IMG/VR virus record: IMGVR_UViG_2565956931_000003
Coordinates: 1 to 64,000 of that record
DNA length: 64,000 nt
DNA from: an uncultured virus (IMG/VR IMGVR_UViG_2565956931_000003)
Lineage: Duplodnaviria; Heunggongvirae; Uroviricota; Caudoviricetes
Direction: 5' to 3' (one strand)
Position numbers and translations under genes: made by a program
Part shown: positions 46,218-52,400 of the stretch, one piece after another
How the letters are laid out: every line of letters begins with the position of its first letter
How positions within the stretch are numbered: position 1 is the first letter of the stretch
The notes under the pieces: model-generated
What the model saw: the letters and a program-made list of their open reading frames with translations, nothing else
Told to the model about the DNA's origin: nothing
Database searches by the model: none

Positions 46218-47659
46218 GTAGCCCCCGAAATATCAGCGGTGCGTTCCAACTCAACAGTAATGCTGTCTTTTGTCACATACACCCACTCATTAGGCTTATT
46301 CAACTCATTTGAAAGCATAATGGTAAAGTCACTCATCCGGTCTTGGAAAGCCACAATATTGTCATTAATCAGCTTCCCCATTTCTTGCGTATTAAAGCCA
46401 TTAACCAGCCAACGACTTGAGCTCAATGATTCACGCCCGTAACGTTCTACAAGTAATTCTTTGATCTGTGTCTTAACCATATCTGTGTTATGTACAGAAG
46501 CCAAAGAGCCTTTAATTTTTACTTCAATTGGCTTTTCTACAACTTCATGTACATTCACTTTACCTTCATACAAGTTATCGCAATAACCAATATACCGACA
46601 GATATCTTGTTCTAACGTTGCTTGTTCAGCTGGGTTCTTGGCAACCACCACAAGATTTAAATGATTTATGTCGCGGTATGTAATGGCAAAGTGTTGCTCT
46701 TGCAACGTTTCATTCCAGACAGAAATAAACTGTGCCCGTTTCATAAATTTTTTACGGACTGCATAGTCAAAGTTGCCGAGAAATACCGCATCTTCATCGT
46801 AAAGTGATGGATAGCTTGATAATAAACGTAATTCTGATACAGCTAACGGATCTACGCCCTCTCTAATCAGTCCACCAGCTTTAAAACGCACTGATACCCG
46901 CTGTTCATCATTAGTAAGTACATCAAGTAAGGCCGCATCTTTTAAACGATTAACATCAACTTCCCCGTATGTCTCAAGAATTCCAATTATTACTGTTTCA
47001 TTGGCTTGCAGAGTACGACCAGCTCTCTCAGAATCGCCAAACTCAATAAACAATCTTCTTAGATTATCTGTAGTAACAGTTACAGCATATTCACCTGGTT
47101 CAACATTCATCCAGCGCGGCTTAATTACATAGTTATTATTGCCCTGCTTAACCGAAATATTTGCAAGTGAAAGGTCCTCTAAAAGGTCTATTCGATATTT
47201 ATGGAACCCTTCAGTAACTGGTACAACATATTTAATTTCACGGTATTCACTTTGTTCTGCTATTACTTCCGCCGTCTCACCAGCTTTAACAGTAATTGAT
47301 TGAAGCAACCGCCATACTCTACCGCCGCTATGGTCCTCAATCATTCGCCCTTGACTTAAGCTCACAGCATTTGTTGACCGGTTGATAATTTCTATTAAGT
47401 GCTGACACGGTGTACCTATAGGCAAAATGCCTTTATTTGTAGCATCCGCAATAATTGAGCGGTCACGTGTTTTGGTAAATGGTTCAATTGAAGCAATATC
47501 GATTTCTGGACCAAATGCAGTCAAAAAACTAGCCATAGAACGCAGCTGGTGAACGACAAGTGGATCTTGAGCTTTATAGCGTTCCTGAATCTCATAATCA
47601 TCTATCGCTGCTTGGAGCTGGGCTTCAAAATCAGCTTGCGTTAATGTCATATGTCTCAC
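46205..47659 (-). CDS. Baseplate J-like wedge protein (P1 BplA-like)
   Basis: FIEFGD...G motif, AVFLGNFD, size and position. Confidence 0.7.
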   Translation of the reverse strand: MRHMTLTQADFEAQLQAAIDDYEIQERYKAQDPLVVHQLRSMASFLTAFGPEIDIASIEPFTKTRDRSIIADATNKGILPIGTPCQHLIEIINRSTNAVSLSQGRMIEDHSGGRVWRLLQSITVKAGETAEVIAEQSEYREIKYVVPVTEGFHKYRIDLLEDLSLANISVKQGNNNYVIKPRWMNVEPGEYAVTVTTDNLRRLFIEFGDSERAGRTLQANETVIIGILETYGEVDVNRLKDAALLDVLTNDEQRVSVRFKAGGLIREGVDPLAVSELRLLSSYPSLYDEDAVFLGNFDYAVRKKFMKRAQFISVWNETLQEQHFAITYRDINHLNLVVVAKNPAEQATLEQDICRYIGYCDNLYEGKVNVHEVVEKPIEVKIKGSLASVHNTDMVKTQIKELLVERYGRESLSSSRWLVNGFNTQEMGKLINDNIVAFQDRMSDFTIMLSNELNKPNEWVYVTKDSITVELERTADISGATWTL

Positions 47660-47969
47660 CTGTTACTGATTTACCCAATCGGTCTGCTACTTGGTTAAGA
47701 TCTATATTCACATTCATGATGCTTAAATGAATATGAACCGTCTCAAATCCTTCGGTTTGTGAATACAGGGCTAATTGGTCAGAGTTAAGCTCAGATAATA
47801 TTGGTAGATCCTTTTTCATCTTAATAAGAAAACTATCTGCCACCCTCGAGTCTAAAGGTGCCATTAGCAAATCATAAAGAGGTGCACCAAAGTCAGAACC
47901 ATACTTCCCATTAACCGGATGATTAAGCCAGTACTCAACCATGTCTAAAATTGTTTTAGATGTGATCAT
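47631..47969 (-). CDS. Baseplate gp25/gpW-like protein
   Basis: WLNHPVNGKYGSDFGAPLYDLL. Confidence 0.7.
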   Translation of the reverse strand: MITSKTILDMVEYWLNHPVNGKYGSDFGAPLYDLLMAPLDSRVADSFLIKMKKDLPILSELNSDQLALYSQTEGFETVHIHLSIMNVNIDLNQVADRLGKSVTGETYDINAS

Positions 47970-48325
47970 TAGGAAGTTGCTCTATTACTGAAAATCATCA
48001 AAAGCTTTACTAGTATTGCAGTGCCAATCTGATAAGTTGAAAAAATGGTGAAATAGATTATGAATATCCATAATGAAACGCTTAATGCATCAAAATATGA
48101 AGCAACGTTATAGATTCGCCAATCAACAAGAATAATAGTGATCAATACACATGCCATACTTATGAAATACATATATCTGATTTCTTTAAATAAGAGGCTT
48201 ATAGGTACATGACGGAATTGTTTAATATACGCAGCTTTATTCTTGCTATTCCATCCTGTAACAACGGAAAGATAAGCTAAAAATGCAAGAATTAAGACAA
48301 TATCAATACCGATTTGAATTTGCAT
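47969..48325 (-). CDS. Three-TM membrane protein (118 aa)
   Basis: Start reassigned to ATG 48325 (AAGGGT RBS and late promoter); hydrophobic segments. Confidence 0.65.
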   Translation of the reverse strand: MQIQIGIDIVLILAFLAYLSVVTGWNSKNKAAYIKQFRHVPISLLFKEIRYMYFISMACVLITIILVDWRIYNVASYFDALSVSLWIFIIYFTIFSTYQIGTAILVKLLMIFSNRATS

Positions 48326-48354
48326 AAAAAACACCCTTAATAAGAACTGTATTA

Positions 48355-48395
48355 AGGGTATTGCTTTTGTATATATGTAAGCGTGAATGGTTCCA
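48355..48395 (-). promoter_or_regulatory. Late promoter (membrane protein-baseplate operon)
   Basis: TGGAAC-N29-TACCCT; perfect hairpin ACCCTTAATA/TATTAAGGGT. Confidence 0.7.
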
Positions 48396-48433
48396 TATTT
48401 GAAAATAAGAAATGCATGGATTATTATATATAC

Positions 48434-48522
48434 AAAGCCCGCTCCACTTTTGACACGAGAACGTATAGGGTCATAAGTGTAGGTTAGAAGATGTCGCAAC
48501 CCATCTCTAACTACCGGGCTTT
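48434..48522 (-). ncRNA. Candidate structured RNA (three-way junction) immediately after the RNase-domain gene
   Basis: P1 AAAGCCCG/CGGGCTTT; P2 GTAGTTAGAGATG/CATCTTCTAACCTAC; P3 ACTTATGAC/GTCAAAAGT; loops are partly complementary. Confidence 0.55.
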
Positions 48523-48524
48523 TT

Positions 48525-49466
48525 TTAATGCACTTCAAAAGCTGTAAGCAGCCATGCATTACTACCTTCTCGCTTAATCAATGACGCTTCATGCGAATTA
48601 AATACAATATTTATTCTTGTAGATAAACCACGTTCTGTACGCCGTTGTGTACTACCTTGAGCGATTGTTTGCACAATAGTATCCACAAGCATATGCACAA
48701 CTTCATCATATGTCATGCCATCACTTTCCATACGGCGCTTGATAATATGCTTAATACCCTGTTTATCACTGCCATACTCAAAATCCACCCAGCCTAAATC
48801 ATTACGATACATAGCTCTATGCACTGTGGTTTTTTCCATAATGGCTTTGTTCATTGCAGCTTTACCACGTGTGATATTTGCTGTAACTGATTTGATTGGA
48901 CTCGCACTATCAAATTCAGGCTTTCCCAGTTCGGATTGACCAGCCTCCGAACTTATACCAAGTTGTTGCTTAGCATGTTCAATTTGTTCTTTCAGCTGGT
49001 CACGGTGAGCTATTTGCTTAGCTAAATCCTCATCAAGCTTTTGCTCTTGTTCTTCGACTTCTTTCATTTTCTGATCTACAGAAGTACGGCGCGGCGGTAA
49101 GCTAACTTTTTCACGCTTATTTTGTTCTTGGATTTTAGATTGTGCTTCACGGATAAGTTTAGCAACACAACTTACGGCGTTTTCAAATGTTGGCTTATAG
49201 TCATCACTAAAATCGCCAGATAGAACAATTACTTTATCATTCAGTTCGGCCTTCACTACATCCGCTAATGCACGAATATAAAGTGTAAGCGTAGCGCCAC
49301 CTGAAAAGAAAAATGCAACTGGTAAAACGCTAACACCAGCAACGCGCTTAATTTTGCGAAATTCTGGTGTAACAATCGTTTGGCCTGTTGCTTTTTCTAA
49401 AGCCGATTGGATCTTTTTAATGTATGGAGTAGTAGCTGTTATAGCTGCAAGATTAAGACTGCCCAT
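48525..49466 (-). CDS. Hdf/DarA-N-like head protein fused to a barnase/colicin E5-like (PBECR) RNase domain
   Basis: N-terminus FRKIKRVAGVSVLPVAFFFSGGATLTL (Hdf/DarA-N-like), coiled coil, then LGWVDFEYG...GIKHIIKRR...WLLTAFE; start reassigned to ATG 49466. Confidence 0.7.
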   Translation of the reverse strand: MGSLNLAAITATTPYIKKIQSALEKATGQTIVTPEFRKIKRVAGVSVLPVAFFFSGGATLTLYIRALADVVKAELNDKVIVLSGDFSDDYKPTFENAVSCVAKLIREAQSKIQEQNKREKVSLPPRRTSVDQKMKEVEEQEQKLDEDLAKQIAHRDQLKEQIEHAKQQLGISSEAGQSELGKPEFDSASPIKSVTANITRGKAAMNKAIMEKTTVHRAMYRNDLGWVDFEYGSDKQGIKHIIKRRMESDGMTYDEVVHMLVDTIVQTIAQGSTQRRTERGLSTRINIVFNSHEASLIKREGSNAWLLTAFEVH

Positions 49467-49493
49467 GAAAAATAACCTCATATTAATGAGGTT

Positions 49494-49534
49494 ATCTTGT
49501 AAGTAAATTTTTTCTAGAAATTACATAAGTTCCA
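49494..49534 (-). promoter_or_regulatory. Late promoter (hdf-RNase)
   Basis: TGGAAC-N29-CAAGAT; perfect hairpin ATAACCTCAT/ATGAGGTTAT covers GAGGT. Confidence 0.7.
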
Positions 49535-49590
49535 TTAAATTTCATTTTGTTTATAAATAAAAACCTGCATTTGCAGGCTTTTATTTTAAA

Positions 49591-50298
49591 TTAATTAGAA
49601 GTTAATTTATTTCGGACGTTCGTTAAACTATGTTGAAACATTTGTAAACCTAATTCAGTAGAAATTTTGACAGGTTCACCATGGTGATATGTTTCAGTGT
49701 TAGCGTGATATGTGTTGCCATTTCCAACAAGATGATTTGTTTCAGCAATCTCTGTTTGCAACATTTGTATTTGATTATTAAGAGTTGTAGACATGATAGG
49801 CGCTTCCAAATTATGAACTTCTTCTCGTTTAATACTGCAATATTTTACTTCCCCTGCAGTATATTGATCGTATTTAATAGCTTCTAGGACAACAGCTATC
49901 GCATTAGGACAATCATGAATAATATGCTGAGTATGAAAACTCCCCGATCCAATTACAGTAGGAACATTAGTAATGTTTTCTATTGTAAACTCAGTGTCAT
50001 TTACCATTTTAGAAAATTTAAGGCAAGAACCACTTAAATAGATTAGTGCAATAAAATCACTATTTGTTTTTTCAAGTATAGATCTCGGAAGCTCAAATTG
50101 TGTTTTATTTTGTAAGATAAAATCAATAAGGGCCTCGCTAAAATCTCTCATACAAAATAAACATCCAGCCATACCAAATACAATATCGCCCAAACGTTTC
50201 ACTTTCCTAAAAGGAATATTTAGAGTAACTTCTGTACGATTTACTGTAAAGGCTATGTCGGAAGCCATGAAATGAGTATCATAAGCTGTTGTTGTCAT
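49591..50298 (-). CDS. Moron: Ntn-hydrolase (HslV/proteasome beta-like) protein
   Basis: M-TTTAY...MASD, KVKRL..GMAG, IGSGS and D.YTAGEV motifs; own promoter TTGAAA-17-CATAAT. Confidence 0.7.
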   Translation of the reverse strand: MTTTAYDTHFMASDIAFTVNRTEVTLNIPFRKVKRLGDIVFGMAGCLFCMRDFSEALIDFILQNKTQFELPRSILEKTNSDFIALIYLSGSCLKFSKMVNDTEFTIENITNVPTVIGSGSFHTQHIIHDCPNAIAVVLEAIKYDQYTAGEVKYCSIKREEVHNLEAPIMSTTLNNQIQMLQTEIAETNHLVGNGNTYHANTETYHHGEPVKISTELGLQMFQHSLTNVRNKLTSN

Positions 50299-50420
50299 TA
50301 ACATAATCCTTAAAACGCGCGCGAATTATGCATTTATGAATAATATTTTTCAAGAACTATATGATCAATTACATTGGAAATATCAATAAAATTAAGAATT
50401 TTATATTTGTAAGTAAACTT

Positions 50421-50447
50421 AAAAAGCCAGCTAATAGCTGGCTTTTT
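50421..50447. terminator. Terminator of ant copy 2
   Basis: AAAAAGCCAGCT-aat-AGCTGGCTTTTT. Confidence 0.8.
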
Positions 50448-50491
50448 ATTAGGGGAGTCCTATTTAGACATCTTTATATTTTGATAAGCCC

Positions 50492-51391
50492 TTATCGATT
50501 CACAGGTTCGAAAGGAAAGCGTTTTAAAACCTTCCCAAGTTCAAGCACCTCATCTTTATGAAGAAAATCCCACAATTGATTAAAGCGTTCACGCAATTGC
50601 ACAACATTAACTGGTGTGTGGTGTAGTGAATATTGCTGTACAGAAACTGCTCCGCTTTCTTGAATCGATATCCAAAAGTTTTTAGGTCCTTTTGGAGATT
50701 GATACTTTAGCTCCTCACCTAATTGCTGTGCAATGTCATAAGCAAGAGGGTTTTCTAATGCTGGATAACGAGCAGCGAGATTATCTACAAACTTTTCTAA
50801 ACGTTTAAGTGTATCTGTTTCAGCTGGAACTAGCTCTTGTAACGGCAAGAGCTCAAGATACTGCTTCGCCTCATCAAAATGGATTGAAAGCAATTGGCTA
50901 TATTTAGCAATTCCAAAGTGGCGATTATGACGAATCCACATTGAAGCTCTTAAGCTTCGATCCCTCCCTGCACGGCGATCAACTATCTCGTGCAGTGCAT
51001 TTTGTTGTTCTGGAGAAATGGTTAAGCGTTGGTTTATTGCTTGCCCTTTAGTCCAGTATTCCCACAGCACATCGTCGCACTCTTGCTGGTACATGATCAC
51101 AGTATCTCGAATTTCGGGATTAACCTTGTTTGGACTTATAGTCATTAACCATCCAAAAAGCTTACGAACAGGTAAACAAACCATATTGTACTGTTTACCA
51201 TCTTTTCCAGTTGTCACTATTTCAGTGATAACTGAACTAAATCTTTGTTTTAACTTTTCATATTGTGATTGCCATGTGAGGCCCATTCCTTCAACAATTG
51301 GGCGCATGGCAGTAAATGGCTGATTGTTGAATTCAATAATTACTAAATCAGCACTATGAAAAGGTACATTAATTTGTGTTAAAGTACGCAT
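50492..51391 (-). CDS. ant: Phage antirepressor (P22 Ant N-terminal domain), copy 2
   Basis: Start reassigned to ATG 51391 (AGGAG RBS); paralog of 29999..30895. Confidence 0.9.
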   Translation of the reverse strand: MRTLTQINVPFHSADLVIIEFNNQPFTAMRPIVEGMGLTWQSQYEKLKQRFSSVITEIVTTGKDGKQYNMVCLPVRKLFGWLMTISPNKVNPEIRDTVIMYQQECDDVLWEYWTKGQAINQRLTISPEQQNALHEIVDRRAGRDRSLRASMWIRHNRHFGIAKYSQLLSIHFDEAKQYLELLPLQELVPAETDTLKRLEKFVDNLAARYPALENPLAYDIAQQLGEELKYQSPKGPKNFWISIQESGAVSVQQYSLHHTPVNVVQLRERFNQLWDFLHKDEVLELGKVLKRFPFEPVNR

Positions 51392-51455
51392 GTTGTTGCT
51401 CCTATGCAATGACAGGCCTCGTTTTCTTTCCACGGACTGCGAGGCTTTTTTGTGG

Positions 51456-52400
51456 TTAAAAATTTACATATTGTTCTTCTGTTAGATTACTTAATAAATT
51501 AAAAAAAGTAGGTCGAGTTTCCTTAGTTAATTTCTGTCTAGGAAATTCACTTAATATTTTGACTGCTTCCACAGGATCTAACTGTGAAGTAAATGGAACT
51601 GATAATTGAATAAATGATGTTTTATCTGTTTCCAAAGCTGTATCCAGCACATCTTTTACTTCATTGTAGCGCGGCTTCCTTTGCGCGGTTAGGAAAAGTC
51701 CATCAAAAATAATATAAATCTCGTTTAATCCTGGTAATTGGACTTTCGCAATTGCTCCCATGAGGGGCAAATTAGTTTCAGGCCCGTCATCTCTACTAAA
51801 CCCATCAGTAGGTGTACGATAAGTCGCAAATAAGATTACTTCTTGACAATTAGGTAGCTTCAAATAGTCGAGCAAATTAAGACAATTTCTCGTGGTATTA
51901 CTTTCGTGATATCTGTGAGCAATTATTAAATCTTCATTATTGTAGAGCGAGGCAAGATAATTCGCATAGGGTAAATATCTTTGGCAAGATTTGGTTATGT
52001 AATCTGATCTAGAGGAGAAAAGATTTGAGTTATGTACTTTATCTTTTAGAAAGTCATCAATTTTTCGTGTTAAAGATATGGGAATTGTAACGTTAATCTT
52101 TTCAGTCTTTTCCGCATAGATTGATGTATCAATTGTTATGACATGAAAAAAAACATCTTTATCACGTTTTTTAAATGTTACTGAATTAATTTCAGTCGGC
52201 TCAGGAATATCAAGACCTTGGTCACTTAGAAAATCAAAATACTCAAGCGTCTTCTCATATACCTTCCTAATCACCTCGTCATAACTGGAACCAGTAGCAT
52301 TAATATTCGGTTTATCAAAAAGTGCAGCCTCATAAATATCTTTTTTAAAGAAAGACTTAGATTCTGTAATCTTTACAGCAACTGTATAGTTTTTCACCAA
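51456..52400 (-). CDS. hicB: HicB-family protein (HicB + RHH + extra C-terminal domain), no adjacent HicA
   Basis: NATGSSYDEV...GLDIPEP, KINVTIP..L...ID...SRSDYI; promoter TTGACA-16-TATTAT at 52446-52473. Confidence 0.75.
   Translation of the reverse strand: MVKNYTVAVKITESKSFFKKDIYEAALFDKPNINATGSSYDEVIRKVYEKTLEYFDFLSDQGLDIPEPTEINSVTFKKRDKDVFFHVITIDTSIYAEKTEKINVTIPISLTRKIDDFLKDKVHNSNLFSSRSDYITKSCQRYLPYANYLASLYNNEDLIIAHRYHESNTTRNCLNLLDYLKLPNCQEVILFATYRTPTDGFSRDDGPETNLPLMGAIAKVQLPGLNEIYIIFDGLFLTAQRKPRYNEVKDVLDTALETDKTSFIQLSVPFTSQLDPVEAVKILSEFPRQKLTKETRPTFFNLLSNLTEEQYVNF

Follow-up and report, generated by a model that had tools for sequence, protein, structure and literature searches.

A three-way-junction module coupled to phage PBECR1 RNase domains and its candidate antisense small-RNA gene in an Acinetobacter provirus

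The locus

An 89-nt element that folds as a three-way junction lies directly behind a predicted RNase gene in an uncultured virus of the Caudoviricetes (IMG/VR record IMGVR_UViG_2565956931_000003). Conserved modules of this kind, ~91 nt long, are coupled to PBECR1 domains in many phages, and the element is one copy. The window analyzed here is the whole stretch of 64,000 nt from position 1 of that record and is part of a 78.7-kb Acinetobacter provirus record. Across the region considered here, phage vB_AbaM_ABMM1 is 96% identical to the window. The RNase gene (open reading frame [ORF] 48525–49481, minus strand) encodes a 318-aa Hdf-like/PBECR1 protein. Its stop codon, TAA, occupies 48527–48525 and the element begins 2 nt further on, at 48522, and extends to 48434 when read on the gene strand. 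On the plus strand, a sigma-70-type promoter (TTGAAA-17-TATTAT, 48399–48427) precedes the element, and its predicted start at ~48434 is the first base of the closing stem. A run of seven T follows the junction at 48523–48529. Junction and T run together make up a proposed small-RNA gene (48434–48529, plus strand), suggested by the fold and by asymmetries between strands.

The Hdf-like protein and its RNase domain

The 318-aa protein contains the motifs PEFDSAS, GIKHIIKRR, and NAWLLTAFEVH, as listed in the original prediction, which was made from the sequence alone. Its N-terminal domain and a charged helical region (residues 7–184; 48930–49463, minus strand) match PHROG 1620, "Hdf-like antirestriction," with an E-value of 1.1e-29; Hdf and DarA are head-associated proteins of phage P1. 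The Hdf half of the predicted Hdf/DarA-N-like domain therefore holds; the DarA_N half is a sub-threshold hint, with Pfam DarA_N at an E-value of 0.042 on the 318-aa protein, under its cutoff. The predicted coiled coil has no support beyond weak coil-like Pfam rows.

The C-terminal part of the protein is a variable cassette (residues 190–318; 48528–48914, minus strand) with a PBECR1 RNase domain (Pfam PF18809) at residues 223–316, scoring 45.6 bits against a gathering cutoff of 27.6 (E-value 1.1e-11). In the passages of Iyer et al. (2017, PMC5512222) that deal with it, PBECR1 is predicted to be a metal-independent RNase of the BECR fold, an N-terminal helix followed by a 4–5-stranded sheet, and is proposed to be packaged and injected. 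According to the same passages, up to 26% of the polyvalent proteins of phages and plasmids contain PBECR domains (Iyer et al. 2017, PMC5512222). The domain has 357 representative relatives, and most of the top-scoring ones listed sit in proteins of 2000–5000 aa. In collections of isolated phages and plasmids, this PBECR1 was found solely in ABMM1 and five Acinetobacter records.

An AlphaFold (AF2) model of residues 190–318, built from an 18-sequence alignment, has a pLDDT of 91. Its structure matches include two CdiA-CT toxins (7m5f_C, Z 6.2; 6cp9_A, Z 6.0), the colicin D tRNase (Z 5.4), and RelE (Z 5.2). Each of the 11 best matches is an RNase toxin related to CdiA-CT, colicin D, RelE, or BrnT. 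Their Z-scores of 6.2–4.7 are moderate, as values under 8 can reflect a common arrangement, but the matches are consistent in family. The top match in Foldseek is also 7m5f_C (E-value 4.5e-3). With PF18809 over its cutoff and RNase toxins of BECR/RelE type as best folds, the BECR-fold RNase first proposed from short motifs is upheld. Conserved features of PBECR1 are a helix His and an alcoholic residue in a late strand (passages of Iyer et al. 2017, PMC5512222). Here, His245 (H56 of the domain) is invariant in the 18 sequences, and position 313 is T or S in most of the 18 aligned rows, as read by eye, and N in one.

Fold of the element

Folding of the 89 nt on the gene strand gives an 8-bp closing stem and two hairpins with a minimum free energy (MFE) of −31.8 kcal/mol (z −3.45; 0 of 200 shuffles as stable), which confirms the structure originally described 2 nt after the stop codon. 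Folding of the opposite strand is just as favorable (−30.0 kcal/mol, z −3.66). The element had been judged to exceed what a terminator requires, and this judgment is supported by covariation of its stems and by a terminator scan that does not flag it. The closing stem encloses 73 nt, and a U7 run is present on the plus strand only, neither of which is the form of an intrinsic terminator.

Comparison to Rfam 15, a check suggested along with the original prediction, yielded no match overlapping the element at E ≤ 10 (positions 47500–50500) and none on any motif copy at E ≤ 1 (loci of ten relatives); element and copies thus match no curated family. A repeat or mobile element was rejected, as the provirus and the genome of A. 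nosocomialis each have just one copy. By BLAST, 1 of 247 Acinetobacter species genomes contains it. A covariance model derived from five Acinetobacter variants only (R1) matches in 1 of 151, and a refined model trained on 47 copies (R2) found no second copy elsewhere in the window. The window copy scores 114.9 bits with R1 and 78.3 bits with R2.

Coupling to PBECR1 in distant phages

R1 matches distant viral loci on the same strand as, and directly after, the PBECR1 domain, with 8 of 13 sources at E ≤ 0.001; one example is locus L149 (44.1 bits, E-value 3e-11). Most metagenomic PBECR1 loci are also matched by R1. The distant phages with the motif have protein identities of 33–57% and a motif GC content of 43–73%. 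R2 gives 87 matches in 84 loci, all on the strand of the domain, a result that holds partly by construction because the training copies came from these same loci; L148, L155–L159, L161, and L166–L169, among others, lie outside the training set. In 74 loci the domain end is complete and is followed by no fewer than 100 nt; all 74 have the motif, which begins between −3 and +42 nt relative to where the domain match ends. Two copies occur in 12 of the 84 loci and are in tandem in 11.

The motif keeps to this site. Five whole phage records (234 kb) have six R2 matches, all at the PBECR1 site, and R2 found no motif in six loci in which the PBECR1 cassette is replaced by one of two other types (B or C, below). 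A DNA pattern scan of IMG/VR that was blind to the RNase returned 17 stretches, 15 with PBECR1 just upstream. The coupling of RNase and RNA structure that the original prediction had raised for one gene is thus general, with the motif in 74 of 74 loci and in none of the six loci with type B or C cassettes, and the linkage of the motif to PBECR1 is obligatory.

Another stretch from the pattern scan, L263, has an 18-bit partial model match and no PBECR1, and was treated as chance. In L264 (694–1437; same place as L266), an untranslated copy of 66 bits lies 118 nt past a PBECR3 gene (E-value 1.5e-22). It is preceded by what appears, when read by eye, to be the tail of a lost PBECR1 domain (GFEKN), and this orphan copy is reminiscent of orphan immunity genes. 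A general link of the motif to PBECR3 was rejected, as the only other PBECR3 relative found (L267) is without a motif.

Covariation and conserved nucleotides

Stems of the motif covary. When 47 copies (45 distinct) are aligned by MAFFT, blind to structure, paired cells amount to 79.4%, compared to 52.9% in column shuffles, of which 0 of 500 reach the observed value, and 34.9–38.9% when partners are slid. The covariation score is 0.604 versus 0.172 for shuffles and at most 0.171 for slid partners. Relatedness among the rows means that shuffle counts cannot be taken as probabilities; the slid-partner control preserves this relatedness. Per helix, 88.9%, 69.7%, 81.9%, and 74.8% of cells are paired. 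The closing stem is wholly different between lineages (AAAGCCCG/CGGGCUUU, AAAUCCAG/CUGGAUUU, and UCAGAUG/CAUCUGA). The test for covariation downstream of homologous domains, which had been suggested as a check, is therefore positive. RNAalifold on the blind alignment recovered the closing stem only; the inner helices required an explicit structure.

In the model-fitted alignment (A4), the 13 top column pairs by mutual information are all pairs of the model. The same kind of scan found no covarying pairs outside the three-way junction, and so the pairing between hairpin loops that had been predicted for the window copy finds no covariation support. Nucleotides of loops and junctions are nevertheless kept across 43–73% GC, including unchanged Arg and Pro codons in GC-rich hosts. 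Their conservation across this range suggests a conserved partner, and PBECR1 is the sole constant neighbor.

Selection on the nucleic acid

The anatomy of a downstream, untranslated RNA does not generalize from the window. In 74 distant loci, the motif is within the PBECR1 reading frame and is translated as a linker rich in Pro, Thr, and Gly, for example NPDEQRGSNDPDLPTHNLPTRQRQAMGAGF, and in most relatives it is inside giant ORFs. The window copy comes after the stop codon and, read in the gene frame, contains two additional stops. It also has a net 2-nt deletion; there is thus no single reading frame through it. This untranslated copy retains the stems and the conserved unpaired nucleotides. 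It is nevertheless better conserved than any other stretch of the locus, which places selection on the nucleic acid rather than on the peptide.

Its conservation is evident in the Acinetobacter population. A protein query yielded 74 IMG/VR loci and one A. nosocomialis genome, and the element is present at ≥97.8% identity in 64 of 76 loci. Of the 12 loci lacking it, nine have another C-terminal half (L065, L066, L068–L072, L074, and L075), and in the remaining three (L059, L060, and L062) homology stops inside the gene. Across 41 distinct prophage sequences that carry the PBECR1 cassette (type A), the element is the least variable stretch, with 4 of its 89 columns variable versus 415 of 1904 in the whole 1.9-kb alignment (binomial p 2.5e-6); none of the four is compensatory. 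In the two most divergent type A lineages, the element differs at 2 of 89 positions, compared to 13.0% and 18.5% in the flanking genes of L057 and 9.4% and 9.2% in those of L056.

The element is part of a system of exchanged cassettes. The Hdf-like N-terminal part is constant in all cassette types up to GQSELGK (~residue 187), and the exchanged part is the C-terminal module through to a hairpin at 48362–48330. Type A consists of PBECR1 and the RNA element. Type B has a ~250-aa domain unrecognized by Pfam, followed by an ORF of 74–89 aa; by eye, its R..S..E-like motifs are presumably those of ADP-ribosyltransferases. Type C has a ~280-aa domain with a weak phosphoribosyltransferase hint (E-value 0.03) and an ORF of 59 aa. 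Type A is without an immunity ORF, and the RNA module is at the place taken by the 59–89-aa ORFs in the other cassettes. With three C-terminal cassettes, the Hdf-like locus looks like a polymorphic-toxin-style locus on a virion protein.

Strand of the motif

Promoter sequences mark the strand opposite the RNase gene. The window promoter is among only 15 matches of at least 10/12 in the 64 kb, both strands considered. Its hexamers are invariant in the population and its 17-nt spacer has five variable sites. A strict pattern (TTG, 16–18-nt spacer, and nAnnnT with ≥4/6 matches, ending 4–12 nt before the motif) is found in 45 of 74 distinct modules; the same pattern turns up at 0 of 74 mirror positions and at 24 of 1424 places taken at random. 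A profile of 66 modules, unselected and ungapped, with positions counted from the first antisense base of the motif, has T45 T39 G39 at −35 to −33, A41 at −9, and T45 at −7. The −10 hexamer is 4, 5, 6, 9, 10, 11, or 12 nt from the motif and thus lies in differing codon phases. Opposite the untranslated copy of L264, TTGCAA-17-TATAAT can be read by eye.

The putative 3′ end and the pairing of bases have the same polarity. In the window, T7 directly follows the closing stem on the plus strand and adjoins the stop codon of the RNase gene; the T run is 6–8 long in the population. At least five U within 10 nt past the closing stem are present in 16 of 75 modules read antisense versus 1 of 74 read sense. 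On the gene strand, A·C mismatches exceed G·U pairs, 97 to 41 and 137 to 46 in two counts. This excess favors the opposite strand because an A·C mismatch is a G·U pair there. Read antisense, 83.0% of pairs are canonical, compared to 78.1% in the sense direction. Of 45 copies, 30 have a more stable consensus junction when read antisense, and MFE folds regain 60% of consensus pairs antisense versus 43% sense. Promoter, 3′ end, and wobble asymmetry are three independent signals in the sequence, all of which indicate the strand that does not encode the RNase. The originally predicted cis element of the mRNA is thus disfavored by the conserved opposite-strand promoter, the T run of the window, and the wobble asymmetry.

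RNA libraries

The stretch or part of it is contained in 22 of 24 listed sequencing runs; 21 are recorded as RNA. In run X22, a contig with a depth of 978 spans from 48456 past 49600 (to ~50257) and ends at 48456, joined to adapter. The next contig downstream (47900–48216) has a depth of 13. This suggests that, in the X22 sample, the RNase gene and the upstream gene for an HslV-family peptidase are expressed well above the downstream genes. In run X23, from the same sample, one contig runs across everything, and a contig of run X9 also spans the locus; neither is informative about RNA ends. The RNA end at 48456 is inside the conserved loop of hairpin 2. We speculate that it could be a cleavage product of a sense–antisense duplex or of the RNase itself.

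Interpretation and alternatives

We tentatively favor, at a little less than an even chance, the reading that the module is an antisense small-RNA gene on the strand opposite the RNase gene, coupled to the RNase and probably its regulator or antidote. Transcription would start at the first base of the closing stem from the sigma-70 promoter, the transcript would fold into the closing stem and two hairpins, and in this prophage the RNA would end at the T7 run and be ~95 nt long. We infer that the small RNA controls the RNase because the module is co-inherited with the RNase domain: it lies within giant genes for polyvalent proteins, and in Acinetobacter it is exchanged along with its cassette. 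Control could occur via base pairing with the RNase mRNA, in the region that is complementary and folds as a mirror image, via binding to the enzyme as an antidote, or both. Consequently, the producing or lysogenic cell would be protected, and the virion-delivered enzyme would be free of control. Such a module is a concrete candidate for RNA-based control of an injected toxin.

Several observations weigh against this reading. Every stem pair of the window copy is Watson–Crick, and therefore the window copy alone cannot discriminate strands. The strict promoter pattern is missing from 29 of the 74 modules and most relatives have no U run after the closing stem. Whole-sequence MFE shows no significant difference between strands (p 0.23), codon constraints could bias the strand asymmetry, and p-values for that asymmetry overstate the case, given that rows share ancestry. 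In relatives, the linker peptide (PTH..PT..R..GA) could account in part for the conservation of loops and junctions. Lastly, neither the predicted start at 48434 nor a terminator would account for the abundant RNA end at 48456, which comes from contigs that carry no strand information.

A narrower possibility, considerably more doubtful, is that the small RNA is a direct RNA antidote of the BECR-fold RNase, encoded by a gene nested antisense in or just after the toxin coding sequence. Such nesting would make toxin and immunity inseparable by domain shuffling. If true, the producer would be protected, lysogens would be immune to the same RNase from related phages, and nothing would restrain the injected enzyme in naive cells. 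It would represent a new toxin–antidote arrangement and explain how producers tolerate polyvalent virion toxins without immunity proteins.

The structure could instead act on the gene strand, within the RNase mRNA (in the 3′ untranslated region here and in-frame elsewhere), where the RNase would bind or cut it in cis autoregulation or a type III-like neutralization. This was the model of the original prediction, and we consider it unlikely. The motif is always on the RNase mRNA directly after the domain, the element folds on that strand too, the two copies in 12 of 84 loci (11 in tandem) are reminiscent of repeat arrays, and the RNA end in the loop of hairpin 2 (depth 978 versus 13 downstream) could be a cleavage product; the BECR-fold RNase RegB cuts phage mRNAs (passages of Iyer et al. 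2017, PMC5512222). Left unexplained are the opposite-strand promoter at +1 of the motif, the opposite-strand T7, and the excess of A·C over G·U. The two models are compatible, since the stems would be required both by an antisense RNA and by a target folded as its mirror image.

Still less probable is a feature of mRNA or DNA that has no partner molecule, such as a translational pause, an mRNA-stability element at the domain border, or a DNA hairpin that promotes recombination and domain shuffling. The position of the motif, at a domain border in polyvalent proteins and within the swapped segment of the Acinetobacter cassette, would suit such a role, as would the all-Watson–Crick stems of the window. 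However, the motif is specific to PBECR1 and absent from other cassettes and from the rest of the five phage genomes, its loop and junction nucleotides are conserved across 43–73% GC, and its promoter is conserved. The stems also differ between lineages and are therefore unusable as a shared recombination sequence. We regard as very improbable that the window copy is a decaying remnant of linker-coding sequence, now a bidirectional terminator, whose conservation stems from a recent spread of the cassette. The copy is homologous to the in-frame linker and has frame-breaking changes, the gene strand has A7 before and TTT after it and the other strand T7, and the whole PBECR1 cassette is less diverse than the N-terminal half of the gene. 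But in the two lineages that diverge most, the element varies far less than the coding sequences on either side; it also varies less than the adjoining spacer, and a canonical terminator is already present ~70 nt downstream. A second untranslated copy, in the unrelated phage L264, keeps 66 bits and its TTGCAA-17-TATAAT promoter.

Relation to known systems

Type I toxin–antitoxin systems include convergent, 3′-overlapping antisense RNAs, as in txpA/RatA and bsrG/SR4 of Bacillus subtilis. The module would share with these a small RNA, predicted here, on the opposite strand with its own promoter and complementary to the toxin mRNA near its 3′ end; of this, the signals of promoter and strand are present in the sequence. 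Type I toxins, in contrast, are small hydrophobic membrane peptides, whereas the toxin here is a 318-aa (or giant) virion protein bearing an RNase domain. The candidate RNA gene also differs in being inside the coding sequence in most relatives, and its loops and junctions are conserved across phyla, beyond the needs of simple antisense pairing.

In type III systems (ToxIN, CptIN, and TenpIN), RNA repeats precede the toxin gene and share its strand, and the toxins are of another fold family. Common to both is an endoribonuclease genetically linked to a structured RNA, with two motif copies in 12 loci here, tandem in 11. In the present module the RNA is single copy, downstream, and probably on the opposite strand. 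The type III-like arrangement first suggested is hence not borne out, as no tandem array precedes the gene on its own strand; one copy follows the gene in the window, and only 12 of 84 loci have two. The module lacks the upstream repeat array that defines type III and the small peptide toxin that defines type I, yet it may act like either.

Polymorphic toxins that come with cognate immunity genes, CdiA-CT/CdiI and colicin D/ImmD, provide another comparison. They likewise have a conserved delivery part, a swappable C-terminal toxin, and a specific downstream partner that moves along with it, and CdiA-CT and colicin D are the best fold matches of the PBECR1 domain here. The PBECR1 cassette differs in having an RNA module in place of an immunity ORF.

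The protein architecture was already known: the polyvalent-protein PBECR1 of Iyer, Burroughs, Anand, de Souza, and Aravind (2017, PMC5512222) is, in the passages describing it, the same BECR-fold RNase fused to virion-associated or DarA-N/Hdf-type domains. The passages of that paper that were searched describe no linker, RNA structure, or antisense promoter beside PBECR1, and its passages on PBECR domains give no mechanism of self-protection (Iyer et al. 2017, PMC5512222). Neither the RNA module nor its motif strings were found in the literature searched, a scope that excludes supplements and subscription journals. Within that scope, the three-armed RNA family is previously undescribed and adds a new family to the catalogue of structured RNAs. 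Its candidate small-RNA gene is hidden antisense in protein-coding sequence, and screens limited to intergenic regions would miss such places.

Other features of the locus

Between the element and the next gene is a canonical 13-bp hairpin with a T run (48330–48362, minus strand), directly ahead of the ATG of that gene and at the point where homology to type B and C loci resumes. It is likely the terminator of the RNase gene transcript and the right-hand border of the swapped cassette. A Shine–Dalgarno-like AAGGG of the next gene is inside its stem. In L046 and L064, the 7-nt loop is reverse-complemented (CAGTTCT to AGAACTG) in the alignment, and BLAST finds the same self-match in L001, L034, L035, and L038; thus, the whole hairpin is inverted in some lineages.

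The next gene (47969–48325, minus strand) encodes a 118-aa hydrophobic protein that starts with MQIQIG, and PHROG 13717 spans all of its residues (1–118 of 118). A 196-aa ORF that begins at 48559 (47969–48559; ABMM1 gp78) would cross the element, but its N-terminal part was rejected as real coding sequence; the ORF is an over-extension and probably an annotation artifact. Relatives start at MQIQIG or have unrelated or absent extensions, and length polymorphism of the A run (A6 in 11 and A8 in 1 of 41 distinct sequences) would break the frame. The extension shows almost no variation, third codon positions included. The annotation of ABMM1 gp78 is corrected accordingly, with the conserved protein being the 118-aa C-terminal part from 48325.

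The true start of the 318-aa gene is probably its second ATG, at 49466 (MGSLNL), because the PHROG 6398 and 1620 profiles start at residue 6–7 and relatives L068 and L070 begin with MGSLNL. A perfect 10-bp inverted repeat (ATAACCTCAT/ATGAGGTTAT) with a 4-nt center lies at 49472–49495, spanning the first ATG and the GAGG before the probable start. It may be an operator or a translational hairpin.

No tRNA or tmRNA was found in the 64-kb window. Upstream neighbors of the RNase gene (49591–50304 and 50492–52400) include an HslV-family peptidase-like protein (PHROG 1040, E-value 4e-63), whose gene shares the X22 contig of depth 978 with the RNase gene. The other neighbors are a protein with a P22 antirepressor N-terminal domain and a 314-aa protein with a HicB-like antitoxin domain. 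In many phage contigs, a peptide motif, W-D/E-E-x-x-H-P-R-x-x-x-G-x-F, precedes differing effector domains. Its carriers include L266–L282 (match 801–872), the proteins of L065 and L069, and P0019, P0028, and P0029, and it looks like a common junction of virion effector proteins.

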